Shown here: positions 1 to 64,000 of the stretch, in pieces
Numbering within the stretch: position 1 is the first letter of the stretch
Layout: each line of letters starts with the position of its first letter
NCBI GenBank assembly: GCA_040384565.1
Contig: JAZKJC010000003.1
Location: forward strand, 87,195 to 151,194
DNA length: 64,000 nt
Direction: 5' to 3'
Source of the DNA: Patescibacteria group bacterium
GTDB lineage: Bacteria; Patescibacteriota; Saccharimonadia; Saccharimonadales; JAZKJC01
Translations under genes and position numbers: made by a program
Notes under the pieces: generated by a model
The model's database searches: none
Told to the model about the DNA's origin: nothing
What the model saw: the letters and a program-made list of their open reading frames with translations, nothing else

Positions 1-2717
1 TTTTGGATCTGGAAGGCGTCCGTAGCATTGGCGGTTCTTGTAGTGAGCTGGGCGCCATTGGCACCGCGGGACTGGTTGGCATAAACAGTGCCAGTGCCTA
101 GGTCCTGGATGGTCGTAGCGCCAGTGCCACTAAACCGGTTGTCGGCAAGGTAGTTATTGTCGGAGGTCGAGTCAGCAATGTTTATAGCATGACCACTTCC
201 AGCTGTGTCGGTAACCTCATTTGAGTTAATAGAGTTAGCGTCAGAGTTTGTCATGTATATACTGCTGTTTCCAGTAGCTACTGTATTGTTATGAAGTTTG
301 TTCGCAGAAACAATGTTATTATTCGAGTTATTGAGCCCGATACCATCGGTTCCACTGCCGTTGACATTGTTTGCTGAAATAATATTGTTACTCGAATTTA
401 TTAAAGTAATGCCTCTAGCCACGGAGTTGCTTACTATGTTGTTTGATATGGTGCTCTGGCTAACTCCTCCAAAATAGACATTAACGCTATTAGCTACGAG
501 TATGTTATTGCTAATGATAAGCCCGCTGGAGCTATCACTAACAATACCTTGGTTACTATTTTGTATAGTGTTCTCATAAACTTTTACATTATATGAAGAA
601 AGTAATCCTATTGCGTCCGTCCGAAAATTATCTATTGTTAATCCTCGGATGTCTGCGCCTGCAGTGGTTGCGTTAGTAGCTACTTCTATAAATACGATAG
701 CGTGCTGCGTACCAGCCGTATTATTCGCCTTATTTCCGTCCAGCTTAAAGTCCCGCAGTTTTATATTTGTGTTACCGTTGGTGGTATCGCTATTCACGAT
801 GGCACTGATGGAAGCGTTGATGCCATCCTCAAGCTTGATTATTGTACTGGCTCCAGCTCCTGCAAGAGTAACGTTGCTGGGTACAGATATTGCTGTATCG
901 ATAGTGTATGTCCCCTCCATCAAGTAAACTGTGCCGCCTTGGGCCGGCAGGGCCGCAATTGCTGCCTGAATCTTGCTGTCGGCATTGCCGGCGGTTTCTT
1001 CTGCACTGGTGACCTGGTAGTCAGCTCCGGCTGGGGTTTGGCTATTGGATGCAGCCACGACTTTTGTTGAGCTACGGCTCATATTCTGCCAAGCTCCACC
1101 ACCGTAGACCAGGAGTTGATCAGTGTCAGTATCAAAGTAGATCTGGCCTTCGGTTGGTGAACCTGGACGTTGAGCGGTGGTGCCACCGATTAGCCTTAAA
1201 GTCTTTTGGGCAGCAATGGTAGTGTCTACGCCTATGTTTACTCCAGTGCTAGCTACACTCAGTAAGTTGCCTGAACCTGCGTTATTCTGGATAGCAAAAG
1301 CAGTCGTAAGAGGGGTGGAGGCATCGCGCACCAAAAGACTGCCATCGGTGGAATTTAAGACGATTATGGCTTCCGTACTGTCACCATCTGCATCATAGGC
1401 ATCCTGCAATGTCACAGCCCCGCCAGACCCAGAGCCATTATTACAGTTAGCAAAGGTTAGAATACCGGCCGTACCGGAATTCTTAACACACTGGCTGGCA
1501 CTACCTAGAGTAGTTGGGAAGACAAACGTTTGACTAGAAGCAGAATCCCCTGCCCTAAAAGTCGTAGTCTGCCCATTGCCATCATGCAGTATTAAATCGC
1601 CCAGAACACTGGTAGTACCGATAGTGGCGCTGGTACTGAATGTGCCGCTGCCGGTAACTTGTATACCGCTAGCAGTGACCGCAAAATACTTTGTACCACC
1701 GCCATTGCTGGTGACCTCTAGCAGATTAGTCCCAAGGGCGCTGCTGGCATCCTGTATGGTCAGTACGCCTTGGGCACTGGTGAGTACTATTTCCGGTGTG
1801 GCATCAGCTGTAGTATCGTAGGCGTCCTGCAAGGTTCCGCCAGCCGCTCCACAACTGGCAAAGGTCAACGTGCCAGCTGTCCCGCTGTTCTTCAAACACT
1901 CGTTGGCAGATCCTACCGTTAGTGGCAGGGTTAAGGCATAGGTGGTAGTGGTTGAGCCTGATTGGATGGTAACAGTGTTGTTGTTAGCGCTATTAGCCAG
2001 GACGATCTTGCCGGTGTTGCCACTAGCTCCATTGCTGGTGCCTAGGGTTAGGATACCGGTTTTGTCCAGGGTCAGGACATCCAGACCGCTACCTTGGAGT
2101 TGCAGGAGGTTACCTGCACCGGTTTGGTTGATGCGGATGGCGTTACTGGCGGAGTTAACTCCCTGGACGCTAGCTGGAGCCAATTGGGCAAAGCCAGTGC
2201 TGTCTATGCCGTCCAGTTGGGAGCTATTGAAGGCGTGGGGCACAGCTGTCAGCTTGATGCGGGGTGACATCTCGCCGTCCCAGGTTGGTCCGGCAGTACC
2301 ACCTATGTTCATGGTTAGCCACATGTCTTGATCCCAGTTAAGAGCTGGGAAGCCAGTTATAGAAGCTAGGTTAACACTGAAGTAACCGTTCTTGACAGTT
2401 ACCTTGTTAGCACCGGTTCTGGTTTCTACCCAGAGACAGTCATCTGTAGCTCCACCTACACAGACTCCTTGGGCACTGGCGCCAGCAGCCAGGGTGTCAT
2501 AGAGCTTAAACTCAATGTTGTAGGTGCCGTCTGGCACTAGGCCGCCACTGGCGTTGAGCAGGCGGGCTTGGAAGTTTAGGTTGGAGGAGGTGGCGGCTTG
2601 GACTGGCTGGGGAGGGCTAAGTAACAGGTTTGAGACAATAAACAGCAAGGGTACTAGGAAAGCTAGCACGGATGTGATGAATGGTTTGCGGGTGGACCGC
2701 TGTTTTTTGTTTGCCAT
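1..2717 (-). CDS. Large secreted surface protein, N-terminal 905 codons only (runs off the left edge); signal peptide, tail-fibre-like repeats, then right-handed beta-helix-like repeats
   Basis: Hand translation from ATG at 2717 gives MANKKQRSTRKPFITSVLAFLVPLLFIVSNLLLSPPQPVQA.. The frame was re-checked at 1082 (..GTTAQRPGSPTEGQIYFDTDTDQLLVYGGGAWQNM) and at 3-62 (..ANGAQLTTRTANATDAFQIQ). Only short plus-strand shadow ORFs lie here. It is absent from the ORF track, presumably because there is no stop in the window. Asn-rich NNI/SxN periodic repeats occur around 240-700. Confidence 0.75.
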   Translation of the reverse strand, partial: MANKKQRSTRKPFITSVLAFLVPLLFIVSNLLLSPPQPVQAATSSNLNFQARLLNASGGLVPDGTYNIEFKLYDTLAAGASAQGVCVGGATDDCLWVETRTGANKVTVKNGYFSVNLASITGFPALNWDQDMWLTMNIGGTAGPTWDGEMSPRIKLTAVPHAFNSSQLDGIDSTGFAQLAPASVQGVNSASNAIRINQTGAGNLLQLQGSGLDVLTLDKTGILTLGTSNGASGNTGKIVLANSANNNTVTIQSGSTTTTYALTLPLTVGSANECLKNSGTAGTLTFASCGAAGGTLQDAYDTTADATPEIVLTSAQGVLTIQDASSALGTNLLEVTSNGGGTKYFAVTASGIQVTGSGTFSTSATIGTTSVLGDLILHDGNGQTTTFRAGDSASSQTFVFPTTLGSASQCVKNSGTAGILTFANCNNGSGSGGAVTLQDAYDADGDSTEAIIVLNSTDGSLLVRDASTPLTTAFAIQNNAGSGNLLSVASTGVNIGVDTTIAAQKTLRLIGGTTAQRPGSPTEGQIYFDTDTDQLLVYGGGAWQNMSRSSTKVVAASNSQTPAGADYQVTSAEETAGNADSKIQAAIAALPAQGGTVYLMEGTYTIDTAISVPSNVTLAGAGASTIIKLEDGINASISAIVNSDTTNGNTNIKLRDFKLDGNKANNTAGTQHAIVFIEVATNATTAGADIRGLTIDNFRTDAIGLLSSYNVKVYENTIQNSNQGIVSDSSSGLIISNNILVANSVNVYFGGVSQSTISNNIVSNSVARGITLINSSNNIISANNVNGSGTDGIGLNNSNNNIVSANKLHNNTVATGNSSIYMTNSDANSINSNEVTDTAGSGHAINIADSTSDNNYLADNRFSGTGATTIQDLGTGTVYANQSRGANGAQLTTRTANATDAFQIQ

Positions 2718-2847: not shown

Positions 2848-3117
2848 ATTATTTAAAATAGGTGCTCTAATCAAAATACATTCGTTGTACAAACCACAAC
2901 TTGTAAAGAGTTGTTACCTATAATTTGAGTCAATAATCAAATATTGCATTATAATTTGAGTTGTAATTTTGTCATCAAAATAAATAATAGACACCTCTGC
3001 CCTAAAACTTATCCACAGCTGCCTAATCTCTCTAGTCACCTTAAGGGTCTTTTAATCGTCTCAAAGATTTTTCAGCACTACTCCCCACAAACTTCAGGTC
3101 AAAAGGTCAAAACCCAA

Positions 3118-3238: not shown

Positions 3239-3673
3239 TTAGTTAGAAAGCGCCTTGAGCCGCTGAAGCTTCGTTTTCTTCTTGTTCTTTGATGTACTTT
3301 TGTATGACCTGCTCTCTTCCAGGTCAACGGTTGACACGGCATAGCCCCTGGCCCAGAAGTGCTCGCCATTGAAGTTTCTGGTTTTGCCGCCAAACTCTCT
3401 AGCAATGGCGATGGCACTTTTACCTTTCAGGAAGCCAACTACTGCTGAAACCTGATATTTTGGTGGGACCTCAATGAGCATGTGGACATGATCGGGCATG
3501 AGATGGCCTTGCAGTATCTTGCAATCCTTTTGGGAAGCCAGGGCATGAAAGATCTGTCCGAGTCTTGGCCTTATTTGGCCGTAGAGCATTTTCTTTCTCA
3601 TCTTGGGCACAAAGATGAGATGATACTTGCAGTCCCACTTCGAATGGGACAGGCTGTTGTAGGTTTGTGACAT
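3239..3673 (-). CDS. tnpA: IS200/IS605-family Y1 (HUH) transposase TnpA; the C-terminal tail is probably frameshifted
   Basis: MSQTYNSLSHSKWDCKYHLIFVPKMRKK..PDHVHMLIEVPP (HUH)..FWARGYAVSTV (catalytic Tyr). The start was moved to the ATG at 3673. After ~3310 an alternative frame reads VIQKYIKEQEENEASAAQGAF*, which matches the usual family C-terminus better than the annotated frame. Confidence 0.85.
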   Translation of the reverse strand: MSQTYNSLSHSKWDCKYHLIFVPKMRKKMLYGQIRPRLGQIFHALASQKDCKILQGHLMPDHVHMLIEVPPKYQVSAVVGFLKGKSAIAIAREFGGKTRNFNGEHFWARGYAVSTVDLEESRSYKSTSKNKKKTKLQRLKALSN

Positions 3674-3724
3674 ATTGATCCTTTCGCGAGTGGTAGCGAG
3701 CAGATCTAAGAAACAGTCTAGAGC

Positions 3725-3757
3725 AATAATACCCAGGCTAATCGCCTGGGTATTATT
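3725..3757. other. Perfect 14-bp stem / 5-nt loop hairpin upstream of tnpA (IS200-end-like)
   Basis: AATAATACCCAGGC-taatc-GCCTGGGTATTATT. Confidence 0.7.
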
Positions 3758-3840
3758 CTGTTGGCTCGCAAAGGTCAAACCGATTCAAGTCACACTAGTA
3801 GAACTAGTGGCTTCCCGATGGGGTAGTGAATTCTTATCCA

Positions 3841-4455
3841 TTAGCGGTCAGCTAGTTCGTGCTTAATTTCTGACAACATATCGCGGTGCTCTTCGTAATC
3901 CGCCACGAACTGCAGGTAGCTCTCACTGCTATTAAACATCTCTAAGATTCGTTGCGGATGAAGCCAGACAGGTGCGTTGCCACGCTTGTAATAGGTGAGG
4001 CTGGAGTAAGGGTATGTTTTCCAGGAACGTGGGTTTAGATGAATATATCTACTGATATGTTCTAGGTAAGCCTGCGTATCAATTCTTGATGCCTTATAGC
4101 GGTTTTCGAACAAGGAGCCACTTCTCTTATACTTGAGATTAAAATAACGGCTGTAGCTAGTCATTATGCCACGCATCAGAGCTGTTAGGCCTCCTTGTTC
4201 TGCCTGGTACACCAAGATATGGAAATGGTTAGGCATAAGGCAGTAGGCAAGAACTTGAATTGACTTTTTAAAGTTGGGGTAAGCAATTCCCTGTTTGCTG
4301 ATGGTTGTTTTATCTGACAAGTATCTCTCAAATAGTTTTAGGAAATATGTGTAGTCCTTTGGCTCCAAAAAGATTGGCTGTTTGCTGGCTCCCCTGGCAT
4401 AGACATGGTAATAGGACTCTCCAGTATCTAACCTGATTGTATTGCGTGATGGCAT
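3841..4455 (-). CDS. REP-associated tyrosine transposase (RAYT)-like Y1/HUH protein
   Basis: YHVYARG.., LMPNHFHILV (HUH) and LFENRYKAS (Tyr motif) are present. Length is 204 aa. Confidence 0.8.
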   Translation of the reverse strand: MPSRNTIRLDTGESYYHVYARGASKQPIFLEPKDYTYFLKLFERYLSDKTTISKQGIAYPNFKKSIQVLAYCLMPNHFHILVYQAEQGGLTALMRGIMTSYSRYFNLKYKRSGSLFENRYKASRIDTQAYLEHISRYIHLNPRSWKTYPYSSLTYYKRGNAPVWLHPQRILEMFNSSESYLQFVADYEEHRDMLSEIKHELADR

Positions 4456-4501
4456 AACTTAACATAACTCTACCAAATATGCTAAAATCTGCAAAATCCT
4501 T

Positions 4502-4523
4502 ATCTGTTAGAGAACAGTTCTCT
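4502..4523 (+). repeat. REP-like palindromic repeat, copy 2
   Basis: ATCTGTTAGAGAACAGTTCTCT is identical to the core of copies 1 and 3. It is followed by the direct duplication CTTGAAGCCCT x2. Confidence 0.8.
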
Positions 4524-4600
4524 TGAAGCCCTCTTGAAGCCCTCCTGTTCATAATAATCTTTTTCCGCGCTTACCCCCGATGCTGGCGGCCAAGCAATCC

Positions 4601-7600
4601 TTAGGGAGTTGGGGCGGCGGCTAGGATGACGTAATCAAAGTTGTAGGTGGTGTTATCGGCGGCTGGGTTGATGGCTACCAGCTCAAAGCCATCTGCAGTC
4701 TTGCGTACATATACCTGAAGCAAGAGGCTTAACTCGTCGTTGGCACTTATAACTATCTTGGGTGTTCTTTCAAATGCTTTATTGAACTTAATGGTGGCCA
4801 ACACTCCCCTATTAGAGGCTGTTGCGGTACGCACCGATATGGTACCGGTTGTATCAGTACCATCCAGTGCGATAGTTGGCATGGTTGCAGGGTCGATTGG
4901 AGTGCCTGTTCCTGTGCCGCTGGCGGCTCCCAATACGGCTTGAGGGGCGGTGCCGCGGCTAATAATGTGGCTTTCTATGATTAGGGTGTCTTTGATAACT
5001 AGCTTGGTTACTGTCAGAGTACCCTGCACTTTTGCGTTGCCAGTTACGGTTAGTTCGGCTAAGGTAGATACTCCAGATACGGTCAGATTCTGGATGGTGG
5101 CCGTGCCGGTGACCGTCAGGTCTTTAGTTGTAATGGTGTTAGTCACAGTCAGGTTGTTTATGGTGGCATCGCCTAGGATGGTTAGGGTGTTGAATGTAGC
5201 GCTGTTGCCCTGTATGTCGGTGGTTGGTTCACTGTTGTAGCCAATGCCAAGCTGTACCATGACTTTGTTACCGGTTTGGGTGCCGTCATAGGCGTCTAGG
5301 GCTATGCCGATGATCCGGCCAGCACCACTTGCCTTCATGGCTACCCCCGGGGTTGATGAACTTGTTAGTTTGTCACCTACTTGGATGGCGCCACCTTCCA
5401 GGCTGACTTTAACTGGCACACGGCCGGTTAGAGCTAGGACAACTGATTGGCCATCATCGGTACCCATAACGGTATGTGGCGTTGTAGATACAACTCCTAT
5501 GAGTTTGCTGTCGTAGGCTAAGGTAGATTGCTTCACGCTGACTGTACTGTCACCGACCGTCAAAACATCGCCGGGTTGAGGTTTTGTGCCGGTGTACTTG
5601 ATCCACTCGGCCAGGTCGGCGGTGTCGGAACCGTTGGCGGCTTGAGCTGTGCCAGAGTTGAGGCCAACTATTCTCCAAGTGCCGTTGATGTAGGCCACTG
5701 TGTAGTTTTCTGTCACCGACCCGTTAACGGTGTTGGCGGCGGTAACGGTGCCAATAGTCGATCCGTTTATCTGGACAGTGACATCGACAGAGTTACTAGT
5801 ACAGTTGTTGTCAGTGGCTTTAGACACAATGTAGGCAAAGGTGCCTTCACTTGATGGCAGGCCAGTTATGTTGAAGGTTTTATCAGCAGTATTACAGTCA
5901 CCAGTAGTGTCGGTAGATTGGACGTAGTAGGCCAAGGCAGCCGTACTTACGGTAGAAGTAGTGGCCGAGTCGCTGGTTGCTGTGGTAGAAACATTACCGC
6001 CCCATGTACCAGTTACGTCAAGTTTACGGCTGGGACTACTCATACCGATACCTACATTACCACCGCTAGCCTGCAGTGTTATGTTACCAAACAAGCCAGC
6101 TGTGCCGTCAGTGCCATTAATGCTTCCTGAGGCTCCTGAACCTGCATTGCCGCCGGCACCGCCCTGCAGAACAAGCCGCCCACCGTTACTCCCATTACCA
6201 CCATTACCGCCGGGCCCGCAGTAGCCTCCACAACCGGCCTCCTCATAATAAGCCTCCCCGCCATTGCCACCTGCTCCACCAATTGCACCCGATATAGTAA
6301 TATCGCCAGCGGCGGCACCGTTCCCGCCGTTATTGCCAGTAAATTGAATGCCACTGCCACCCGCACCGCCCGCTCCCGATGCAAGGCTAATGGAGCTTCC
6401 AGTTCCACCGTTGCCTGAATCAGCACCTGACCCCCCGATACCTCCAACTACATTCAGCGTCTGCACAGCTGCCGCACCACTATCAGCTGGTTGGTTAGGT
6501 CCAAGGACATTTAACGTATTGGTAGTCACGCTGCCGGAGAAGTTTGTAGTCGTAGCGGAGGTACCAAAGTTGATAGTTGAAGTGTTGCCATTATCCAGGA
6601 AGTTGAAAGTGCTGCCGCCGACGGTCTGCTGGATGGACTTGTCGGTGAAATAGGTGGATCCGTTGCCAGTGACGATGCCGTCTATGAAGTAACCGCGGCC
6701 GTAGCGATTGGTCAGGCTCTGGGTTAGGTCTACGCCACCCAGTTCTGGGATATGCATCTCGACTACAGCGGCACCATTATCCCAGGTCAGGGCTGGGGAG
6801 ATGGTCAAGGTGTTGGTAGCAATAGCGGTGATCTTGGCGTAACACACAGTTACTGCTCCAGAACAGGTGTTAGCACCCGTGGGGTCTACTTGGACATAGT
6901 TGCCTACATCAAAGTTAGTGGCAGAAGTCAGGATAAGGGTGGTGCTATTGGTACCAGCCCCGTTAGCAGTGGTAGAGCCGTTGAGGGTGGTGAAGCTAGA
7001 AGTAATGTCGCCATCGGCATTGACTTTGAAGTTGGAGGCAGCTCCGGTGCCGACGGAGAGGAGGGCGGATGGGGTAGTGGTACCGATCCCGACGTAGCCA
7101 CCGTTAAATAGTGCGGCGTAATTGGTATCGGCGCCTGATACATTTACGTTTAAGCCTGTCAGTGTGGACGTACCGCCAGTATCACCAGTCGCCTGAATAT
7201 CTAAGCCGTAAGTATTGATGGTGCCGCCAGTGGCACCAGTACGAGTAACTGTCAGTTGTTGGCCGTAAGTAGTGTCTGTACCGGCAGTCTTATTCACCGT
7301 GTTAGAAACCGTCAAACCAGAGCCGGTGTTTGTGGTGGTGCCGGTTGTGGCTGGAGAGAAGGTTGCATCAATGTCGAATTTGGCGTCGGGGGTGGCGTCG
7401 CCAATGCCGACAAATCCACCACTTGATTGCAAAATAACATTCCCATACGAGCCGTTTGTACCGGCAGTTCCAGTACCAGCTGGTCCGCCAGTACCACCAG
7501 TACCACCTTGGATAGTTATCGTACCACCAGAGCCACCGTTGCCGCCGTTTACTCCCGGACCGTCAGGATCTTCACATCCCGGGCAAGCTGAGCCGCCGAT

Positions 7601-10600
7601 TCCGCCAGTTCCGGAAGTAATGGTAATGTTTCCACCATTTGCACCTGACCCAGCATTGGTACCGTTATATCCCTGCGAGCCTGCTCCACCAACACCAGTA
7701 GTTAAGCTAAATGCGCCGCCAGCACCACCATTATCACCACCAAAAGTATTAATAGTACCACCTCCCCCGCCAGCGCCGGTAGTAACAGATAGTGCTCCGC
7801 CCACACCACCCACGGCACTAATAGAGTTGAAGCTAAGTCCGCCCTGCCCACCTGAACCCGTTGCAAGTGTCAGGACGCCGCCATTGCCACCGTTCATGCT
7901 GCCGACAGCTTGACCAGCCGACCCGCCATTACCAGATTGTAAACTTATAAGGCTGCCATTACCGCCAGCTGATCCGGCAACGCTAGCTCCATTTCCTCCA
8001 AACACCTGTAACACAGGTGTAGCAGCAGCTCCTGCAGTTGTAGCTGATGGCCCATCAACCTGGAGCATGGAACCTGGTGTAGAGGTGACGCCTATGCCAA
8101 CCCGGCCATTCTGATCAATCACAAACGGTGTGGTGTCACCTGAACTATCATCAACCCGCAGAGCATACCCTGTACCCAGGCTATTAATAAACATACCCCC
8201 GAAGGCACCAGTGTTTAGTTGGTCTACAGTTAATGGGTAGGTGCTATCTGAGCCGGAAGATGCAGGATTACGGATAATTATTGAGTCATCAGCTGTTGTC
8301 AGGGCAACAATAGCATCACTGCCGTCAGCGTCAGTGTTATAGGCAGATTGAAGAGTTGATGCAGCAGATATACAGTCTCCCCACGCGCTGTTTTCAAAGC
8401 AGCGGAACTTATTGGTGTTGGAGTTATAGTACGATGCGCCATTGACGCCAGTGGGATCACCGGCAGTGTTTTTTGTGTCTAGCACTAGTAGAGCAGCGGT
8501 GGCATCGGCGGTTGTATCGCCAATATAAATTCTAGAGTTTGTTGTATCTATCTGGAACAGTTCGTTGCCAGCAGTAGTCGACTGAACTACAAAGGCGGTG
8601 GTGGAGTTGGTCTGGTTGCGGAAGGTAGTAGCACCACCGTCAGCAACCTTTAGAACATCTTGGGCTGTAGTGGATGTGTCAGTTACCTTGAAAAGATCGG
8701 TGGAACCGGTCGAACTGACATGAAGAAGGGCACCAGGGGTGGATGTACCGATCCCCACATTGCCTCCGCTCGCCTGCATAGTAATATTGCCATAAGCGCC
8801 AGTCTGGCCGCTGTTACAGGATCCGCCACATCCGTCTCCTCCTCCTCCTCCTCCTACACCTGTTTGAATATTTATATTTCCTCCAGCTCCTCCGTCGGCA
8901 CCATCAAGCCCTGTACCTGCTCCGGCACTGCCTCCTTGCCCGCCTGCGCCGCTAGTTATATTAATAGCGCCACCTAAAGCACCAACGCCTCCACCGGCAA
9001 CGCCATCTGTACCATTACCGCCAGCTCCACCTGTCCCGCCGGTAAGCGTTAGTGCTCCTCCTGCTCCTCCTGTTTGCCCAAGTCCTCCGCCGGATACTCC
9101 ACCCACACCACCTGTTCCTGAAAGCATTGCAAGCAAACTGCCAGCACCACCAGCACCGGTTGTACCATTACCGCCAGTACCACCCGTGACTTGCAGGGTT
9201 TGGACGGCAGCCGCGCCAGCTGTGGCTTGGTTTGGACCAAGGATATGTAAAATTGAGGTTGGACTAGCCAGTCCAATACCCACATTGCCCGCATTATCTA
9301 TAATAAACGGTGTGCTGTCAGTGTCGGTGCCGTCATCGTTAACCCTTAGGGCATAGCCTGAGCTACCGCCAGCACTAGTTAGGAGTAAGCCGCTCTTGCT
9401 AGCGCCCGTGGCAAGTTGGGTCACCTTTAGCACGAAGTCGCTATCCGAACCACTGGCTGCCGGATTAGAAAAGATTAGTGAATCATCAGCTGTAGTCAGG
9501 GCAATCGTGGCATCAGAGCCATCAGCATCGGCGTTGTAAGCACCTTGGAGAGTAGAAGCTGAGGCGCTTGTAATACAATCCGCCCAGGCGCTATTTTCAA
9601 AGCAGCGGAACTTGTTGGTGTTAGAGTTGTAGTAGGTGGCACCATTGACACCAGTTGGGTCGCCGGCAGTGTTCTTGGTGTCAAGCACCAGTAGAGCGCC
9701 GGTGGCATCGGCTGTAGTGCTGCCGACCTGCAGACGTGAGTTCGTAGTGTCGGCTACTAGCAAGTTGGTACCAGCGGCGTTTTGGATCTGGAAGGCGGTG
9801 GTGGAGTCGGTTTGGTTGCGGAAGGTGGTGGCTCCGCCATCAGCGATATCAAATACATCCCTGGCTGTCGCGGTCGTGTCAGTAACTCTAAGGAGTGAAC
9901 TTCCTCCGCCAGTTCCTGAGACATGGAGCAGCGCGCTGGGGCCAGAGAGCCCTATGCCGACCCGACCAGCTGTAACTGTAGAGAACAGTATATTGCCGGG
10001 AGTACCGGAGGTAGTGCCGCCATCAATATATACATTGCCACCATTCGTACCATTGCCACTAGCACCGCCCTGAATTCTTACGTTGCCACCCGGTGACACA
10101 CCGCTGCCACCACTGCCACCATTTAGGTTTAGGTCACCGCCTGTGCCACCGGCGTTAGCACTGCCAGCTTGAACTGTTAAATTATAACCGTTACCACTGG
10201 ATGCTTGGGCTACGCTTATGGTGCGGTTAGCGCCTTGGCTCAGGGTGTGGTTACCGGTTGAGATAAGGTTACCACTGGCTAGGATATTGCCTGTGCTATC
10301 GACCTGGAATTGGTTTGAGGCACCGACACTTAGCATTGATGCTGGGGCTGTAGTTCCGATGCCCAGGGATCCGCTTTGATCAATCCGTGCGCGCTCAGTA
10401 GTTGAGCAGCCGTTACAGCGGGTGGCGAAAACCAAGGCGTTGGAGTCAGTTCCAGTCCGAACAGCGCCGATGGTGGCATTGCCGGAGTTGGCCGCGGCAC
10501 TGGAGGCAAAGCTAATGCCGACGAAGCCAGTTGAGTTAGTGTTGGTATTACGAATGGTTAGACCCTGCATTAAGGACGTTGTAGTATAAGCTGCCGCGCC

Positions 10601-48431: not shown

Positions 48432-48454
48432 CAATTTATGCTATTATTAAGCTT

Positions 48455-49387: not shown

Positions 49388-49419
49388 ATAGCCCCATATC
49401 TAATACTTTTCGAAATGAT

Positions 49420-49920
49420 CTATTGCTTAACCGGAGCTGTAGTTCCCGCCCCCACAGTCGCACTACTAGTAGCTTCCACCACTTTCTTGGTGGATGGCCT
49501 ATATAGTATGGCACGGACGGATTTGTCTGGGGAGACATATAGCAGCACTACGTCGCCGTTCTGAGCGTTTTTGAAAAAAGCGTTTTCTGTTGCCAGCTTT
49601 TTAGCGTCTTTGACAGGTATAAGGCTGGGCGTTAAATCTGTTGGTAGCTCTACAACCTTGCCAATCTCTTCCTGATACTTCAGAGCGTCAGTTTGGCCAT
49701 CGGATGATTGGCTGGTAAATTGTTTTTGGACTTCTTCTTTGAGCTTGTTCCGATCATTAAGTAGAAAAATAAAGCCAAGTATTACTGCTAAAGCAACTGC
49801 GGCCATTATTACTGTGTTTTTGGAAAGTCCATGTATACGAGGCACAACTAGGCTAGGCTCAGCAGCAGCGACCTGCTGCTTGGACTGGTCGATTGGGACT
49901 TGGATTCGTACTCGCGCCAT
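49420..49920 (-). CDS. Small single-pass membrane protein immediately downstream of giant gene 2
   Basis: ORF track. TM is VIMAAVALAVILGFIFLL. It starts 27 nt after the giant gene stop. Confidence 0.6.
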   Translation of the reverse strand: MARVRIQVPIDQSKQQVAAAEPSLVVPRIHGLSKNTVIMAAVALAVILGFIFLLNDRNKLKEEVQKQFTSQSSDGQTDALKYQEEIGKVVELPTDLTPSLIPVKDAKKLATENAFFKNAQNGDVVLLYVSPDKSVRAILYRPSTKKVVEATSSATVGAGTTAPVKQ

Positions 49921-49947
49921 TCTACTCTCCGTTATGCTTATAGTTTA

Positions 49948-55900: not shown

Positions 55901-58900
55901 CCGTCTAAGGTCAGGTTGGTAACAAAGCTGCCGTTAGTGTTGCTCAGGTCAATAGTCACATCGGCTGCGCCGAGGTCAGCGGCGGCAGATTGCAGATTGC
56001 TAGCCCGCAAATTACCTGCGACTTCCGCGGTAGCCAGGTCGATAGCACTACCAAGCTTCGTCACGTTGGCACTTAAAGCACCGTCCGCTACTGAACCGCT
56101 GGCTGAAACGCTGAGCGCGTCAGTTACCTCACTATCAGCCCAGGCGAAGCCCAGAGTACCACTATTGGTAAGTTCATCTTTGGTGATTGTCGCACCAAGC
56201 TTGGTGACGTTTGCGCTAAGGGCGCCATCCGCAACCGTACTGCTCGCCCCTACAGTAAGCGTATCTGGTATATCGGCGTCTGTGAGCGCAGCACAGGTCA
56301 GGTCTCCATTAGCAGCAATTGCGTTGGCGAACTGGTTGGCGGCACAATCGGCTGGGTTAGCGGCAAGCGCAGTTGCTGTCGTGGCATTACCCGAGAATGA
56401 CCCTGAGAATGAAGCGGCTGTAACCACGCCATCAATGATGAGATTCGTGACAAAACTGCCATTGGTATTGCTTAAGTTGATAGTCACGTTCGCAGCCCCC
56501 AGATCAGCGCCAGCATTCTGCAAATTCGTAGCCCTAAGGTTACCGGTCACTTCACTCGTCCCCACATCTATGCTGGTTCCTAGCTTAGTAACATTGCTAC
56601 TGAGCGCGGCATCATTCACCGAGCCGGAAGCACCGATAGTGATCGTATCGGATATTTCGCTATCGGACCAAGTAAAGCCTAAAGTGCCGCCACTTGATAA
56701 TTCATCCTTGCTGATACTTGAGCCAAGAAGACTAACGTTGGCGCTTAACGCCCCGTCCGCCACCGAACCGCTAGCTGAAATAGTGATACCGTCCGGTACA
56801 TCCGCATCGGTAAGTGCCGCGCAAGTGAGATTCCCGTTAGCTACGATGGCAGTAGCGAATTGGTTTACCGCGCAGTCGGTAGGATTTGCGGCAAGCGCGC
56901 TGGCGGTCGTGGCATTACCCGATAAAGCACCGCTGAAAGTGTTAGCCGTAATGGTACCATCAAGTGTTAAGTTCGTAACAAACGAGCCGTTGGAATTACT
57001 GAGGTCAACGGTAATATTCGCCGCTCCAAGGTCAGCGGCGACAGATTGCAGATTGGTAGCCAGGAGATTGCCGGAGACTTCAGCTGTTGCCAAATCAACC
57101 GCAGTTGTAGTGCTGCCGGAGCCAACGAACAGGCTAGCAGTTAGGGTGTCACTGACATCGGCGTCGGTAATGCTGGCGCAGGTTAGGTTCCCGTTGGCGG
57201 CAATTGCATTGGCATACTGGTTAGCACTACAGTCAGTTGGGTTAGCGGCTAAGGCGGTGGCAGTAGCGGCAAGGTCAATAGTAATGGAGTTTGGTATGTC
57301 AGCGTCAGTGATGGCGGCACAAGTCAGGTTGCCGTTGGCGGCAATGACGTTGGCAAACTGATTGGCGGCACAATCTGTGGGGTTGGCAGCTAGGGCGCTG
57401 GCCGTTGAGGCGTTGCCGGTTAAGGCACCGCTGAGGGTAGTGGCGGTAATGGTACCATCTAAGGTTAAGTTAGTTACGAATGAGCCATTAGTGTTGGTGA
57501 AGTCTATGTTAACATTGGCGGCACCCAGGTCAGCTGGGCCACTTTGCAAGTTAGTGGCCCGAAGGTTGCCTGCCACTTCAGCCGTGGCCAGGTCAACGGC
57601 GCCAGTGGTGCTGCCACTACCGACAAGGTTAGTAGCGGTGGTAGCTAGGGTGGCTAGATCGATGGTGATGTTGTTAGGGACGTCAGCGTCAGTGATGGCC
57701 ACGCAGGTCAGGTTGCCACTAGCGGCTATGGCATTGGCGAACTGGTTGGCACTACAGTCCGTGGGGTTGGCAGCTAGGGCTGTGGCAGTCGTCGCGTTGC
57801 CGGTTAAGGCACCAATGAAGGTGGCGGCTGTGATGCTGCCATCTAGAGTCAGGTTAGTAACGAAGGCTCCGTTAGTGTTGCTAAGGTCTACGGTAACGTC
57901 AGCGGCACCTAGGTCTGAGCCGGCATTTTGCAAGTTAATGGCCCGGAGGTTGCCGGCTACTTCCGCCGTGGCCAGGTCAATGGCGGTAGTCGTGCTACCT
58001 GAGCCGACGAACAGGCTGGCGGTCAGGGTGTCAGAGACATTGGCATCATTTATAGCCGTACCATTCCATACACCGACGGTGATAGTACCACCAGACACAC
58101 TAAGGCCGTTAACTGCGCTTGAACTTAGGGAACCGCCAGATATAGTTGCAGTGTTAATGGTGCCGGTAGTAATCAGCGTACCTGCCACGCTTGCGCCACT
58201 GGCGGTAACATCAAAGTATGAGGAAGTACCGCCGCTGTTCTGGACGGCAAATAGTGAAGTACCGAGCGGTGTAGAATTATCCCGTATAAGTAAGCTGCCG
58301 TCAGCACCATTCAGATTGACGATGACATTACTGCCGTCGACATCGTTATCGTATACGTTTTGGAGAGTCGGCGCTGAACCAGTGCCGTTATCGGCGGCAC
58401 AAGCCCATTGGTTAGACCCATTATATTTCATTATTTCGCCGGCGGTACAATCGATCAGCGACAGGCCATTTACATCAACCTCTAGGCCCTTATTAGCTTG
58501 CAGGCTGAGCGTAATGCTGTCAGCGACTACAGAGATACCATTGCCCGCCCCTACTGCCAAACTGGCGGCTATGCCCTCGCCGCTGGCATCCCCTGTCAGA
58601 CCGTTGCCGGCAGTTATACTCTGGATATAATTTCCGGTAGTGTCAGTCCCTAGAACAACACTGTCTACGCCGACATTAAGACCGCCGCTGAAAGAGCCGG
58701 TTATGTCACCCGCTGCTGGTGATTCTCCGACGTTTACGTAAATACTGTCTAGTGTTGTAAAGTAGTTCGCATTAGTCAGAACCGTGCCAGTCGCACCACT
58801 AAATGTATAGGTTGCCGGCGCCCCGGGAGTAGCAAACGTAAGTGTTACATCATTGGTGCCTTTTTCTAGCTTAACGTCACCATTCTCAAGAATACGTATA

Positions 58901-61900
58901 ACTTCGCTGCCAGCGGTATTAAAGATTATGTCGTCTGCTCCGGCAGTCGCAGTTGTCCCTATAGTAATAGCGCCGGCGTTTTGCAGCGTTGGTGTCGTAA
59001 CCGAGCCAGTAAAGCTTGGGGAGTTAGTAATAGAAATACTGCCGCAGTTTGTACCAGTTGTACCTATCGTGACCGTCGCGCCACCACCGCTTAAGTTGCC
59101 GGTTCCACTGGCACAAGTAAATGTATTTGCGCCAGCGGCCGCATTGTTGGCACTGGAGCCATAAAGTACGCTCAAGGTTGGAACTGAACCTTCACCGCTG
59201 TTTCCAGTGGTTGAGAGACCGGTGAGGGTACCTAGATTGGCTACGTAGTCGCCGGTGGTGTCAGTTGTTAACGCAACACTGTTAGCCCCGACATTAAGGC
59301 CAGCACTAAAGCTGCCGGTGATGTCTCCGGCTGCTGGAGACTCACCGACATTGACGTAGATGCTGTCGGTGGTAGCGGTGTAGTTGCCCGTAGTCAGGAT
59401 GGTGCCTGTGGCACCTGATAGGGTGTAAGTGGCTGGGGCACCGGAAGGCGTACTTACCGCCAAGGTTACATCGTTTGTGCCCTTTTCGAAGAGTAGGTTA
59501 CCACTTTCCAGGATGCGAACCTTTTCCGTTCCAGCGGTTTCAAAGATGATGTCATCACTACCAGCGGTGGCCGTGGTGCTGATTATCATAAAGCCAGTGT
59601 TCTGCAGTAGCGGAGTTGTGACGCTGGTACTGAAGGCTACGGCATTATTAGTCGTTAGGTTATTACAGCTGCCGCCTGTACCCAGGGTGATGGTGTTACC
59701 ACCACCGCTTAAGTTGCCCGTGCCACTGGCGCAGGTGATAGTGGTGTTACCTTGGACGGCAGTATTGGCAGCGGAACCGTAGGCTACGGCCAGGCTGGTT
59801 GAGCTGCCTAATGCAACACTGCCACCACCGGACAAGCCGTTTCCGGCACTGACAGTTATAGATGAATTCTGAAGAGCGCCGTTAGCAAGCGTTGTTGTCC
59901 CGGCAGCCGTTAGTCGACCCTGGGCGTCGACTGTAAAGGTGGGAACAGCCGTAGTTGATCCATAAGAATTGGCCGTAACTGAGGTATCAGCCAGGTTAAG
60001 CGTCGCACTGCCACCCAGGCTAATGGCTCCGCCGCCAGACAAACCAGTACCAGCGCTAACTGTCACTGCGCTGTTTACTAAGTCCCCATTTGTCACCGTG
60101 CCATTTACTATCTTGCTGCCGTTAACACTATCAGCTTCCAGCTCACCTAAACCAATAGTTTGGCCTAGCAAAGTGACATTGGCGCTGAGGCGCAGGTCAT
60201 TTAATGTCCCACTGCTTACGTTACCGGCATTAAGGCCAGTCAGGGCGCTACCATCACCGCTGAAGGCTCCGCCAATGATTGTGCCCGTCACATTAATATG
60301 GCCAGCCTGGGGAGTACCAGGAGTAGCAGGCTGCAGTGAAACGCAGCCGGAACAGCTATTAAGGCCTGTGATCGCTACATTGGCCGCGCCAGTAATCCGA
60401 CCTTGCTGGTCCACGGTAAATTGGCCAACTTGCGTAGCTGAGCCATAGTTTCCTGCCGTAACAGCGGTATCTGCCAGATTCAATGTCGCGCTGCCACCCA
60501 GGCTAATGGCTCCGCCGCCGGACAAACCGGTACCACCGCTAACAGTCAGTGAACTGTTCTGCAATTTAGCGTTGGTAACATTGCCATCGGCAATCTTAAC
60601 AGTCGTAACAGCGTTATTGGCTATTGTGCCCATACCACTGGCATTAACCGTCAAATCACCACCCAATGCCTGCGTGACCCAGCTTGTACCATTACCAATC
60701 AGTAAATTACCGCTGGTAGGCGTGGTGGTGCCAAGTGAGCTGCCATTAATTTTACTGACAGTTGGGTTAGGATAGCTACCGCTCAAGTCGCCACCTGCTG
60801 TTCCACCCGGAGCAACGCCACTAATAACGGTATTTGTTACGTTTGTTATCCTGCCCTTGGCATCCACGGTGAATACCGGCACTTCCGTGCTGCTGCCATA
60901 AGTGTTAGCAGAGACACCTGAGTTTGCCAACGTCAATAAGCCGGAAGCAGCTAACAACGCGTCACCAGAGAGGCTTACAAAGCCCGGTACGCCACTACCA
61001 TTCGCAACCAGCAGTTGCCCAGTTGTACCAGCGGTCGTTGCCTGGACAGCTCCGGTACCATTGCCATACAACACACCATTACTGGCAAGAGTTGACACGC
61101 CTATACCACCGTACTGTACGCCAATAGTGGAGCCTTGCCAGACGCCACTGGTAAGCGTCCCGACACTGGTAATGTCAGTAAGGTTACCAGTGGTAATAAG
61201 CATGCCGTTAACATTAGGCACCGTAAGTGTACGCGTAGTCCCAACATCTACGCCCGCAACATTAAACATTGCTTTCTTGGTATTGTCGGTACTGTCCTGC
61301 AATGTAAAGCTATTGTTATTGAAACTCCAGTTACCACTGATAACTTCAGCATTCGTGCGCCGCGTGATACCTGAATTCGTGTAATCAAGCCCTATGTTAG
61401 CCCGTCCAGCTGGCGTCTCGGTGACAGTGAAATCATTGTTGGCGTAGTTAAGAGTATTAATAGTATTAGATATGGTTACGCCGCCCTGCTGCATGGTTAG
61501 CGCGCCGGCATTGAGGTCAGTGGCGCACTCCCACAGGCTCGTGCCACTATTCCACTTAAGTATCTGGTTACCCGCACAGCCGCCGATAAGGCGTAGGCCG
61601 TCCGTACCCAGTTCCAGTCCGGAGTTAGAATTAACAGTTCCCGTTGTGCCGGTAGTAGCAACATCCAGGGCTATAGAAGTGGCTGCATTTTCCGAACCCG
61701 AACCTGTAACCGTAAGGCCAGTTCCCCCGGTAAGGGTTGCTACGTAATTTCCCGCTGTGTCTATGCCCAGGACAACGCTGTCAGCACCTATGGCCGTGAC
61801 GCCGCTACTATTGACTGTAACATCGCCTGTCATAACCTGGCTAACCCAACTTGTACCATTGCCAACCAGCAGCGCTCCGCTACTTGCGTTTGTACTACCT

Positions 61901-64000
61901 AGCGATACTCCATTAATACGGGCTACCGTTGGATTGGGATACGATCCGCTTAAGTCACCACCCGCTATTCCACCTGGTGTTACACCGCTAATAGTCGTAT
62001 TGGTTACCACAGTAACTCGGCCTTTAGCATCTACCCCAAAGACCGGTACTTGGGTAGCGCTACCATACGTTGCCGCAACAACACCTGAATTTGCCAATGT
62101 AAAGGTTCCGGTTGAGCCTAAGGTCGCATCGCCAGATAACGTTGTAAATGTTGGTACATTGGTGGCATTAGCAAGGAGTAATTGACCACCACTTCCAGGT
62201 GTTGTAGCTTGCACAGCACTAGTTCCGTTGCCGTATAAAACGCCGTTGGCCGTTAGAGATGTAGTCCCAGTGCCGCCGTATTGGACCGCGACAGTCGAGC
62301 CCTGCCAGACCCCACTCGTCAGGGTGCCAACGGCTGTTATATCCGTCAGGTTACCTGTCGTAACAAGGGTACCGTTAGTATTCGGAGCCGTAAATACCCT
62401 TGTTGTACCCGCGGTAATACCGGAAAGTTCAAAAACTATTTTCTTAGTTGAGTCGGCATTATCCTGAAGCGTGAAGCCAGCATCAGTGAAATTCCAATTT
62501 CCACTAATAATTTCGTTGGCGCTGCGGCGCGTAATGCCAGAAGTAGCATAATTGATAGCCAGATTAACTGCCGCGTTTTCCGTGCCAGATCCGGAAACCG
62601 TAAAGTCCGAGCTGCCAGTCAGGCTGGAGACATAATTGCCTGTCGTGTCTGTCCCAAGAGCCACAGAGTTTGGCGCAACGCTTAGGCCACCAGAGAAACT
62701 TCCTGTAATATCACCCACCGCTGGGGACTGATTTTCGTTCACATATATAGAATCAAGCGTCGCCGCGTAATTGGTTGTCTGCAAAACATTATTGCCAAGC
62801 CCTATCCTGACCTGGCCACCACCCAGTGATGTAACTATAAATTCATCTGATGAGCTTACCGCGGGCCCAAATTGTATATTCGTGGCACTCATGACAACCA
62901 CGCTGCCATCTGAAGACTGTACGTTCACAGCACTACCACCGGCATCCGCATTACAGATCCAGGCACTGCCATTCCATTTTAGAATCTGGCCACTGGAACA
63001 GCCGCCTACTAGACGCAGCCCCTGGCTACTTGTCTCCAGCCCGGAGGCTGAACTTGTTGTCGTAGTGCTACCACTGGCTGCGACCCTTACTTCAACCTTG
63101 TTTGAAAGTACCTCGGTACTAACCCCTGTTTGGACACCAAGGCTTACGCTGCCGCTTGAACCGCCGCCGAACAAACCAAGCCCGGCGCTAACTTCATCTA
63201 TATCGCCGGATGGACTATTAGTATTATTGGTACTGGTATTCGAGGTTGGTGGCTGGCTGACATATGTGGTCCCTCCGCCTCCACCAGCCCCCCTAAGGGC
63301 CATAATAGTACTTACCGACAAGTTATTCAGCTGGATGGCACCGTCGCCAATCTGAGTACCCGTAATAGACTTATCTTTAATTTGCTTGCCTGTTAATGGC
63401 AATACGGCCAAGTTGCCGTCTTTATCACCCGGTTCACGGCCTTGGACAAACTGGCTGTTAAGATTAGCAACCAAACCTTGGTCAGGAATGTTTATATATG
63501 ATGAGTCAGGCACGCTAAGTACATATTTACTTTCGATATTGCCGTCTTTATCAGGTGCAAATATATCGTTGACATCTTTTATAGCGTCATTTGGTTTGAT
63601 GTTGGCAGCCAGATCTGGATTAACAATACCCGCGACACTAAGCGCGGAGTTAGTAACAGGACGTAATATCCGGGCAAATATACTTGGTGATTTGGGCTCT
63701 ATATAGTGTCTGCCTAAGTGATTAGCGGGTGTATAACCAAAAATATTCGCCATTGCGCCTGGCGCGGTCAGGAATAGGCCGGCGCAGGACACTATTAAAG
63801 CAGCTAGCAATACCGCCGAGCCAATAGTCGCACGCTGCCAGACTGGCAACCTAAGGAACCACCCAGGAGTAGGTAGTTGCACTTTGGGTACTTGCCAGTG
63901 AGGGCGAGGCGTAGAAGCCTGGTGTTGAGGGGCGTTTACGATACTTGGAGTAGAAGCTACTTCCGCTGCCGCAATAGGTATGTCTAAAGCTATAGTAGGA
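49948..64000 (-). CDS. Giant (at least 4,644 aa) membrane-anchored tail-fibre-like surface protein; the 5' end is possibly outside the window
   Basis: The ORF track starts at GTG 63882. By hand, the same frame stays open to 64000 (..[47 protein letters not shown]..). TM is [19 protein letters not shown]. Fibre motifs are [15 protein letters not shown], [19 protein letters not shown] and GLRLxGGCxxxQILKWNxxxxWxC. It also has a ~1,700-aa tandem array, a Peptidase_S74 motif, a G2-like barrel and an H-lectin-like end. Confidence 0.9.
   Translation of the reverse strand, partial: [4683 protein letters not shown]
50870..51168 (-). other. Peptidase_S74-type intramolecular chaperone / autocleavage domain inside giant gene 2
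   Basis: [11 protein letters not shown] (Ser codon 51168-51166), ..[10 protein letters not shown].., ..[17 protein letters not shown].., ..[22 protein letters not shown]. Confidence 0.8.
52950..58045 (-). repeat. Coding tandem array (~5.1 kb; units ~350-560 nt; 15 Cys-loop copies)
   Basis: The repeating module is [110 protein letters not shown]... I counted 15 ANPxDC..LTC loops in the translation. Confidence 0.85.
54616..54678 (-). repeat. 9-nt microsatellite encoding (Asn-Ala-Thr)x7 inside the array
   Basis: The plus strand has GGTTGCATT four times perfectly (54643-54678) plus three degenerate units. It translates as [28 protein letters not shown]. Paralogous units carry only (NAT)2 or (NAT)3. 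Confidence 0.85.

Follow-up and report, generated by a model that had tools for sequence, protein, structure and literature searches.

Three giant genes on a 64,000-nucleotide (nt) stretch of a Saccharimonadales chromosome probably encode native cell-surface fibres of this bacterium, assembled as mosaics from the modules of phage tail fibres and tailspikes and, in the shaft of gene B, of the MAT (mosaic adhesive trimer) fibres of Bdellovibrio, with stalks that are likely to be trimeric beta-helices. They are good candidates for a role in host recognition and attachment. The window, by which we mean this whole stretch, belongs to a metagenome-assembled genome (MAG) from the Candidate Phyla Radiation (CPR), and the checks for prophage and neighbouring genes cover these 64 kb. 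By open reading frame (ORF) calling, the three genes, here A, B and C, are all on the minus strand and span 30,930 of 64,000 bases (48.3%), as a preliminary description of this DNA had estimated when it placed three giant minus-strand genes at the following positions, covering about 48% of the window:

1-2717, minus strand: gene A, ORF of 905 or more codons, class-I fibre, C-terminus cut by the window start
4601-18760, minus strand: gene B, ORF of 4,719 amino acids (aa), class-II giant fibre
49948-64000, minus strand: gene C, ORF of at least 4,683 codons, giant fibre

Class I denotes fibres with the N-terminal domain of gene A, and class II those with the anchor of gene B. Read from a GTG at 63882, gene C encodes 4,644 aa (49948-63882); its frame stays open on to base 64000, so that the window end probably cuts off its N-terminus. 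GenBank holds the product of gene B, with identical sequence, as MES2970929.1, a "hypothetical protein" encoded by a 157,989-bp contig of a Patescibacteria MAG. Roughly 60% of the residues of the giant proteins are G, T, S, N or A (57% in gene A), and each protein has a single Kyte-Doolittle hydrophobic segment, at its N-terminus (A 11-36, B 66-93, C 18-45).

When the shaft of gene B is compared with known structures, its kinship becomes clear: judged by its sequence, it is homologous to MAT fibres. A profile of 13 GxVGIG units from gene B was searched against all PDB sequences with a threshold of E<=1e-3, and at this threshold only MAT structures of Bdellovibrio bacteriovorus were matched. 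The MAT matches were 8OND (Bd2133) at 2.4e-16, 8OJN at 9.8e-10, 8OML at 9.7e-7, 8ON4 at 1.5e-4 and 8OL4 (Bd2439) at 1.3e-3, and they cover Bd2133, Bd3182-type, Bd1334-type and Bd2439. The shaft unit, of type GNVGIGTTNPTATLHV, occurs 14 times; it carries the capping loop V-G-I/N-G-x-x-x-P-x-x-x-L of MAT fibres, the same motif as in Supplementary Fig. 18 of the MAT paper (e.g. NVGIGATAPTAKLE and AVGIGTTNPSGILH). MAT proteins have been shown experimentally to be surface-located adhesins of the predator Bdellovibrio; they form trimeric beta-helical fibres with swappable tips and end in S74 or other adhesive domains (Caulton et al. 2024, PMC10769870). The parts of gene B are as follows:

17711-18760, minus strand: anchor module, aa 1-350, with a ~65-aa cytoplasmic tail, a transmembrane (TM) helix at aa 66-93 and a conserved juxtamembrane region
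14102-17491, minus strand: proximal shaft with duplicated modules, three Cys-pair motifs and a GGTG motif
5969-12826, minus strand: MAT-type shaft, aa 1979-4264, with 14 "GxVGIGTxxPxxxLHV" capping-loop units and Gly-rich stretches
5237-5629, minus strand: barrel module, aa 4378-4508 (starts ADLAEW...), 38% identical to the gene C barrel and homologous to the ectodomain of m1, a small protein encoded next to gene B
4619-4798, minus strand: H-lectin-like C-terminal tip, weak (Pfam H_lectin E 0.023, below cut-off)

The hydrophobic segment of gene B is, to judge from its surroundings, a signal anchor, because a ~65-aa tail precedes it and Arg/Lys flank it. Beyond the MAT-type shaft, the protein continues through a small beta-rich segment, the barrel and a bactofilin-like beta-helix (weak evidence) to the H-lectin-like end, a type of tip that also terminates 10 other Saccharimonadales fibre ORFs.

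Gene C connects to MAT fibres because of its S74 domain, its tip and the blocks that it shares with gene B. Its parts are:

63748-63831, minus strand: TM helix (hydrophobic segment), aa 18-45, numbered from the GTG at 63882
52873-58107, minus strand: repeat array, aa ~1926-3670, with 15 Cys-pair minidomains "NPTDCxANQFA..NGNLTC" interleaved with ~75-aa units
50863-51168, minus strand: S74 chaperone/protease domain, Ser4239-Lys4244 (SDARLK), found by Pfam, PHROG and Foldseek
50464-50850, minus strand: barrel module, aa 4345-4473, found by Foldseek, with a weak Pfam match to Phage_cement_2
49984-50151, minus strand: H-type-lectin tip, aa 4578-4633, found by Pfam and Foldseek

The S74 domain matches Pfam PF13884 at E 1.8e-16 and 9e-18 (60.6-64.8 bits against a cut-off of 22) as well as PHROG tail fibre families. 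In a monomer AlphaFold2 (AF2) model its best Foldseek match is the ICA domain of MyRF (7DC3), and the K1F endosialidase chaperone (3GW6) and 3GUD are also found. With a Pfam score above the gathering score and the SDxxxK dyad in place, the sequence of gene C qualifies as a member of Peptidase_S74, for which cleavage itself is predicted. The domain is internal: about 300 aa lie beyond it, and the cleavage site is ~400 aa before the end of the protein.

The barrel that follows resembles, by Foldseek, the base of the phi29 gp8.5 head fibre, several capsid cement/decoration proteins and a C-terminal fragment of phi29 gp12 (3GQH); the match to 3GQH has E 0.024 and probability 1.0, and the cement/decoration barrels and the gp8.5 base match equally well or better. 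Pfam agrees weakly (Phage_cement_2, E 0.02). A short helix and a beta-helix separate the barrel from the tip, which scores 24.0 bits against H_lectin (PF09458) as a slice, exactly the cut-off, and 21.3 bits within the whole protein. Foldseek places the modelled tip with Helix pomatia agglutinin (2CCV), SLL-2 and discoidin II, and 2CCV, 4Q56 and 3WMP are matched with probability 1.0; a homologue (P0142) carries PF09458. On the gathering score and the agglutinin-like modelled fold we class the tip of gene C as an H-type lectin, with predicted sugar binding, and regard that of gene B as a weak case only. Both proteins thus have C-termini of the kinds known from MAT fibres, namely S74 with SDxxxK plus an H-lectin tip in C and a barrel plus an H-lectin-like tip in B.

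The proximal part of gene C consists of duplicated modules with GGTG and Cys-pair motifs. Its repeat array extends over ~1,750 aa with DNA copies that are 60-84% identical, and Tandem Repeats Finder reports none of them. One repeat unit contains a run of N-A-T triplets (NATNATNATNATNATNATN; aa ~3068-3090, window 54613-54681), with shorter runs of NATNAT in the units nearby; it could represent successive N-x-T sequons or a stretch prone to slippage, and its length could vary between strains. At the other end of the protein, a Cys-pair motif (C..ILKW....W.C, aa 4215-4244) directly precedes the S74 cleavage serine. The same is seen in protein P0010, and P0012 has a different Cys pair (CTAGQY...TC) at this position. 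Such a disulfide-type knob would become the new C-terminus of the stalk after cleavage.

Gene A starts differently and, within its visible part, reaches a domain of tailspike type:

2592-2717, minus strand: signal peptide, aa 1-42 (KKQRSTRK, hydrophobic core, ..VQA|A), single hydrophobic segment at aa 11-36
2193-2591, minus strand: N-domain, ~130 aa, a beta-sandwich (alignment; AF2 model with a predicted local distance difference test score, pLDDT, of 83)
63-986, minus strand: right-handed beta-helix, aa 578-885, with Pfam, PDB and PHROG matches

The sequence of its N-terminus is probably that of a cleavable signal peptide and not of a membrane anchor. The preliminary description had assigned a signal peptide or a single TM anchor to each of the three proteins; one N-terminal hydrophobic segment is present in each, and membrane anchoring is the part that we would drop for A. 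MAT fibres start with a signal peptide followed by a ~130-aa beta-rich domain, and the N-domain of gene A occupies this same position; B and C have other N-termini. A profile of the N-domain yielded 138 protein matches and 312 confirmed stretches in GTDB species genomes, and hundreds of fibre genes in Saccharimonadales begin with this domain. Searches for its fold in the PDB and among viral models (BFVD) gave no match at E<=1e-3 and returned generic Ig-like matches only. Proteins of 500-730 aa with S74 at their C-terminal end are likewise matched by the profile at their N-termini, and one such protein falls in a cluster of Bacteroidales "tail fiber domain-containing protein"; the N-terminus of such a Bacteroidales S74 protein aligns with the N-domain at E 2e-5 (in a 59-sequence search) and with an hhalign probability of 75%. 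FCB-group proteins of this type are listed as members of the family by the MAT authors (PMC10769870).

The stalk of gene A comprises TLQDAYD modules and a IYFDTDTDQLLVYGGGAW motif (at A 527), a region that matches PHROGs, one of which is a virion structural protein. The beta-helix that follows matches Pfam Pect-lyase_RHGA_epim (7e-12), NosD and Beta_helix, the AlgE epimerases in the PDB (AlgE6, E 1.7e-9), and, among PHROGs, a pre-neck appendage family (4.5e-12) and tail-spike families. These similarities make it a candidate polysaccharide-acting domain of the tailspike or AlgE-epimerase kind.

The preliminary description had described the proteins as fibre- or tailspike-like, built of motifs normally seen in phage tail fibres, and had named families to be sought with profile hidden Markov models. 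A motif search of the three translations found every motif that it cited, and the domain searches substantiated the general description through the S74 chaperone, the H-lectin-type tip, the cement/gp12-like barrel and the tailspike-like beta-helix. Peptidase_S74 was recovered in C (1.8e-16), H_lectin reached the cut-off on a slice of C, and beta-helix families were found in A. Gene B, searched whole and in ten slices, gave no Pfam, NCBIfam or PHROG match above threshold, Peptidase_G2 (PF11962) had no Pfam match, and phmmer of B and C against PDB sequences returned nothing useful. Nor are all of the motifs typical of phages: the Cys-pair module had zero matches among 50,697 phage records, and no known relatives were found for the gene C repeat array or for a 170-aa block shared by B and C. 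The GGTG module is weakly matched in a few phage records, some of them annotated tail-fibre genes. A profile of the Cys-pair module did hit designed Pizza beta-propellers at E 1e-11; we rejected this as spurious, as each repeat contributes ~6 bits (i-E ~79) and the total sums identical repeats.

The individual motifs can be placed as follows. ILPVGNGGTG lies at B 741 and YGGTG..LYGNG in gene C at 535/549 and 924/938; the Cys-pair motif has three copies in B and four in C, and YYNSNTNKFRCFENSAW has two copies in B. G-x-VGIG is found 10 times in gene B with a narrow pattern and 13 times with a wider one, and TLQxAY[DN] and TTAFxIQ are common to A and B. The proteins were compared by composition-corrected BLAST; uncorrected similarities with huge E-values reflected mostly the G/T/S/N/A-rich composition and were discarded. 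The best block shared after correction is B3905-4074 with C3710-3874 (54% identity, E 2e-45), followed by B404-488 with C1755-1838 (62%), A425-495 with C1828-1899 (46%) and the barrels, B4378-4508 with C4345-4473 (38%). The proteins had been called "three related" ones, which is right in that modules are shared by all three, and too broad in that each has an N-terminus of its own and the shafts differ for the most part. The 170-aa block lies at:

6539-7048, minus strand: block in gene B (FDVGNYVQ...CYAKIT...RYGRGYF), common to gene C and other CPR fibres
52261-52755, minus strand: gene C copy, found by BLAST and alignment

Both kinds of N-terminus define families of large fibres. The ORFs of class I range from 800 to more than 3,500 aa, with at least 22 of 80 reaching 2,000 aa or more, and their bodies are mosaics of the same modules. 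For class II, aa 1-350 of gene B were searched against 1.84 billion representatives, which gave 389 matches at E<=1e-3, with 61 clusters still matched at E<=1e-30; lengths extend up to 5,171 aa, and among these 61 closest clusters 28 have a length of 2,000 aa or more. The cytoplasmic tail and a single TM helix starting at about aa 40-95 are kept in 67 of the 75 best class-II matches inspected. A contig of another metagenome (L083, 1-19589; JGI 3300068061) carries in a row, on one strand, an m1-like gene, a class-II giant of 4,743 aa, a membrane ORF of 195 aa and another class-II giant; class-II giants can therefore occur in tandem.

These families bear on whether the giant ORFs might be artefacts of assembly or annotation, produced by collapsed or chimeric repeats or by low-complexity sequence that merely lacks stops. 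The window does derive from a MAG, there are stop-free ORFs on the opposite strand of gene C (e.g. 52985-55093 and 55097-57361), and an independent contig covering part of gene B ends at 8141, beside a 268-nt repeat of 92% identity. Yet that independent assembly, from Logan, is 100% identical to the window over 2556-8141 (5.6 kb), and the 4,743-aa class-II homologue, which has the same architecture, has the same sequence on 6 contigs, the three shown coming from three different samples. Both observations argue against an assembly artefact. The internal DNA repeats of B and C, moreover, have diverged to 60-92% identity, none being near-identical over a long stretch; significant domains follow in order from N-terminal anchor to C-terminal tip; and ORFs of at least 2,000 aa are frequent among the closest family clusters (28/61). 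We consider an artefact very improbable. The opposite-strand ORFs, of 702, 754 and 422 aa (plus strand, 52985-55093, 55097-57361 and 57362-58630) within the gene C repeat array and of 257 aa antisense to gene B, probably just reflect the biased codon content of the coding strand and are not genes, and could mislead a gene caller. Tandem Repeats Finder, tRNA and Rfam scans found nothing, and promoter and terminator scans gave signals at chance level.

The genomic context indicates to whom the fibres belong. The 31 kb between B and C, together with the flank of B, encode ordinary housekeeping proteins by Pfam: L21, isoleucyl-tRNA synthetase (IleRS), class II ribonucleotide reductase (RNR), NrdR, FtsZ, FtsA, methionine aminopeptidase and adenylate kinase, and further PriA, Def, Fmt, a short IF2, S1 and a ROK kinase. 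The best 80 of the 312 GTDB species-genome stretches with a class-I N-domain were inspected for titles and gene order. Among these 80, 57 have titles naming Saccharibacteria, Saccharimonadales or Saccharimonadia, most others are generic ('bacterium', 'Patescibacteria group bacterium'), four name other taxa, and the complete genome CP025011 is included. The order FtsZ-NrdR-RNR-IleRS-fibre recurs in them, with IleRS adjacent in 26/80 loci and both RNR and IleRS in 17/80. The minus strand of the window shows the same order, and we therefore take this to be a conserved chromosomal locus. The G+C content at third codon positions is 0.50 in the giant genes, inside the housekeeping range of 0.40-0.50, and their synonymous codon usage correlates with that of the housekeeping genes at r = 0.81-0.83 for B and C and 0.66 for the shorter A; the raised G+C of the giant genes arises at codon position 2, that is, from amino-acid composition.

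These observations weigh on the possibility that A, B and C are remnants of a prophage or tailocin, that is, fibre or tailspike genes of an integrated phage, perhaps domesticated, and not part of the cell's own surface. Such an origin would account for the S74 domain, the tailspike-like beta-helix, the cement/gp12-like barrel, the matches to PHROG tail families, the weak phage matches of the GGTG module, including annotated tail-fibre genes, and the two IS200-like transposase ORFs between A and B. It fits poorly with the rest of the evidence. Neither Pfam nor PHROG reveals a capsid, tail-tube, baseplate, terminase or integrase gene in the 64-kb window, and the genes sit within a housekeeping locus kept across many Saccharimonadales. 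The N-termini are export or anchor signals, not virion-attachment domains, and the lengths of 4.6-4.7 thousand aa are far above phage fibre sizes. A search of 2.9 million IMG/VR viral contigs found no relative for the class-I N-domain and none for the class-II anchor. The housekeeping locus, the native codon usage and the absence from IMG/VR therefore make a prophage origin very unlikely. The preliminary description had likewise argued against a prophage remnant and had seen no capsid, tail-tube, baseplate or terminase genes nearby, and on both points we agree.

Several features of the locus deserve mention in their own right. The two IS200-like Y1 transposase ORFs lie adjacent to each other on the minus strand at 3239-3778 and 3841-4455 (Pfam Y1_Tnp, 1.2e-34 and 3.2e-11), and the junction is confirmed at 100% identity by the independent Logan contig. 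In many relatives an N-domain fibre gene directly follows IleRS, and because of this gene B or the IS200-like insertion may mark a rearrangement of the locus. On the plus strand, a 422-aa ORF at 48119-49387 (start codon uncertain) converges on m2, the small gene downstream of gene C; it contains an HExxH motif (FCHELAHIAG), has no Pfam or PHROG match and may encode an unannotated metalloprotease. Features of small CPR genomes include an asparaginase/GatD-like gene between RNR and IleRS (25161-26288), a DUF5663 gene (42136-42489) and a short IF2 gene (43043-44800, 585 aa).

Two small genes accompany the complete fibres:

18940-19758, minus strand: m1, 272 aa, with a signal peptide, a barrel and two C-terminal TM helices, directly upstream of gene B
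49420-49920, minus strand: m2, 166 aa, a single-pass membrane protein, 27 nt downstream of gene C

The ectodomain of m1 is homologous, by jackhmmer, to the fibre barrel found near the C-terminus of many giants, gene B included. As an observation, m1 is thus a free-standing, membrane-tethered copy of a fibre barrel module beside a fibre gene, and class-II giants have an m1 homologue immediately upstream in three further genomes (L053, L008 and L083). The m2 protein, with ~110 extracytoplasmic residues and one TM helix, has no PHROG or Pfam match and has 14 homologues in 13 other loci. Where a large upstream ORF could be identified, 13/13 follow a fibre gene that ends in a beta-helix and H-lectin tip of the gene C type; these tips are 26-45% identical to it (36-45% in all but one), and the gap between the fibre gene and m2 is 51-155 nt in 9/13 loci and ~1-1.4 kb in four. 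The linkage between m2 and one tip type would, by analogy, resemble the pairing of a phage tail fibre with its assembly protein. An adjacent small membrane-protein gene had been noted for each complete giant gene: both are real membrane proteins and both pairings recur in other genomes. A single common "small partner" is ruled out, as m1 and m2 are not homologous, and they lie on opposite sides of their giants, m1 upstream of B and m2 downstream of C.

Immunity proteins are usually cytoplasmic and highly polymorphic. This matters for a quite different function, in which the giants would be contact-dependent filaments for delivering toxins or effectors, of the polymorphic-toxin or CdiA-like kind, with m2 as the immunity protein. 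The giants are indeed exported beta-helical proteins, a small gene starts only 27 nt downstream of gene C, and its presence depends on the type of C-terminus that the upstream gene encodes. Searches with Pfam and NCBIfam, however, revealed no domain of the toxin, pre-toxin or two-partner-secretion kind; the C-terminus itself is a lectin-like beta-sandwich that comes after a chaperone and a barrel; and the m2 family is conserved, its members having one TM helix and a domain outside the cytoplasm. We would accordingly assign this function only a slight probability.

If A, B and C are native host-contact fibres, as we think probable, we infer their surface location, trimeric state, attachment function, S74 cleavage and glycan ligands along the following lines. 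The Sec system would export the fibre chain, and B and probably C would be held by the signal-anchor TM helix behind a cytoplasmic tail. In A, the ~130-aa N-domain that follows the cleavable signal peptide may bind a surface or wall component, as proposed for MAT. Trimerisation would proceed from C-terminal folding nuclei (S74 in C, the barrel in B and C), and S74 self-cleavage at Ser4239 in C would sever the final ~400 aa, with chaperone, barrel and lectin, from the anchored stalk or loosen their hold on it; this fragment may then stay bound, be shed or be released in a regulated step. MAT Bd2133 spans 142-150 Å with ~370 residues (PMC10769870), and if the giants are trimeric beta-helices with its rise of ~0.4 Å per residue, fibres of about 4,600 residues would measure ~150-200 nm, roughly as much as the cell is wide. 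The distal ends are predicted to contact glycans of the host-bacterium envelope through the H-type-lectin tips of C and, on weaker evidence, B, and the distal tailspike-like beta-helix of A may act on, and cleave, envelope polysaccharide of the host. Shuffling of modules among paralogues could diversify specificity, and m1 and m2 would be dedicated membrane partners, m2 tracking one tip type like a tail-fibre assembly protein.

Some results weigh against this reading. MAT-type capping loops are absent from gene C (and from the visible part of gene A), and the link of the gene A N-domain to MAT through the Bacteroidales protein is a modest one, at an hhalign probability of 75%. Neither the gene C repeat unit nor the 170-aa block has a PDB sequence relative by profile search, the former giving only weak WxLIP_HBD matches in Pfam, so that no known fold can be assigned to them. 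The AF2 models cover two slices as monomers only (the gene A N-domain and C 4190-4644), and the latter has a mean pLDDT of 67 overall, with individual domains confident. Finally, the internal position of S74 is awkward for a simple tip-adhesin model: cleavage would cut the lectin tip off gene C.

The only rival that keeps appreciable weight takes the giants as S-layer or surface-coat proteins, a fibrous CPR coat that serves mainly for protection or spacing and not as specific adhesins. The G/T/S/N/A-rich composition, the long repetitive shafts and the conserved position beside cell-division and translation genes would suit such a coat, and in the CPR bacterium Vampirococcus a fibrous surface has been attributed to giant membrane proteins (PMC8080830). 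Against it stand the several paralogues with shuffled modules and variable tips, as in receptor-binding proteins, the lectin and depolymerase-like domains, and the experimentally shown adhesive function of the closest relatives (PMC10769870). We therefore regard a mainly protective coat as unlikely, and note that a coat is compatible with an adhesive role.

Taking the host-contact fibres together with their partner genes, a broader picture can be sketched, which we offer as a tentative possibility. Saccharibacteria may build their host-contact surface from a large, recombining family derived from MAT and tail fibres, with members of up to ~5,000 aa held by their own TM helices, and this family rather than type IV pili alone would set host range. 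In such a scheme m2 might be a membrane-tethered, tip-specific assembly factor and m1 a barrel-bearing docking protein, and the internal S74 might serve as a programmed break point that releases or exposes the lectin-tipped module on contact.

Host binding by these bacteria is a subject to which the locus contributes directly. A passage in PMC12206443 states that the mechanisms by which episymbiotic CPR bacteria identify and bind their hosts "remain largely unknown", and discussion so far has centred on type IV pili, on a type IV secretion system and on a small number of adhesins known from prediction (PMC10633639, PMC11665869). The locus supplies testable candidates: a phylum-wide, syntenic set of tail-fibre/MAT-like fibres whose lectin and depolymerase-type ends can be exchanged, anchored to the cell in two ways and accompanied by conserved partner genes. 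Through it the MAT fibre family reaches beyond Gram-negative predators to CPR symbionts of monoderm type, and it fits a general pattern in which receptor-binding proteins of phage style are employed by bacteria living on bacteria. Because genetic tools for Saccharibacteria now exist, the control of host range by the tips is directly testable.

The preliminary description had proposed an undescribed apparatus, and here our comparison with known systems leads to a different view. Tail-fibre-like surface fibres of a bacterium that attacks bacteria are already known (MAT, 2024; PMC10769870), and the gene B shaft is homologous to them; giant membrane proteins with a proposed role in host attachment have been reported from CPR bacteria as well (2021; PMC8080830). 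The novelty lies in the phylum, in the size of up to ~5,100 aa, in a class anchored by a TM helix, in a syntenic locus that is conserved, in the internal position of S74 and in two families of partner genes. Among the publications searched we found none linking MAT, S74 or tail fibres with Saccharibacteria, and the list of other lineages in the MAT paper has no CPR entry (PMC10769870).

MAT fibres are the closest of the known systems. Gene B has the same beta-helix shaft unit, with its 'NVGIGTxxPxxxLH' capping loop 14 times over, and the mosaic build, the swappable tips, the coexistence of S74 and non-S74 members and the presence of several paralogues in a bacterium that lives on other bacteria are likewise common to both. 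The differences are that ours is a monoderm-type CPR bacterium and not a Gram-negative predator, that the giants measure 4,600-5,100 aa compared with ~400-1,900 aa for MAT, that the class-II anchor of a cytoplasmic tail and TM helix is not described for MAT, that gene C has an internal S74 and lacks capping loops, and that conserved partner genes, m1 and m2, are present. With phage fibres and tailspikes (K1F 3GW6, T5 pb1 4UW8, phi29 gp12 3GQH) the giants share S74 with the SDxxxK dyad, a tailspike-type beta-helix, a gp12/cement-like barrel and lectin-type tips; unlike them, they are non-viral, carry export or anchor signals in place of a virion-attachment N-terminus, are about ten times longer and occupy a conserved chromosomal locus.

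Among giant proteins of other bacteria, those of the CPR predator Vampirococcus lugosii, membrane proteins of 1,392-4,163 aa that may, as proposed, make up a fibrous surface by which the host is recognised (Moreira et al. 2021, PMC8080830), are similar in coming from CPR bacteria, in their very large size, in their predicted membrane location and in their proposed role. Compared by description, they differ in containing WD40, PKD, integrin, fibronectin and DUF11 domains, with no relation to tail fibres, S74 or MAT reported. The giant genes of Omnitrophota (West-Roberts et al. 2023, preprint, 10.1101/2023.11.21.568195) also encode very large exported proteins of ultra-small, putatively predatory or symbiotic bacteria, but these are much larger and have C39/S8 peptidases and SecA-like domains, with no S74 or tail-fibre content mentioned. 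MyRF, whose S74/ICA domain (7DC3) is the best Foldseek match for that of gene C, offers a parallel in eukaryotes: there too an internal S74 lies in a membrane-anchored protein, and cleavage separates two functional halves, although the part released from MyRF is a transcription factor and its topology and function are unrelated to those of the fibres.

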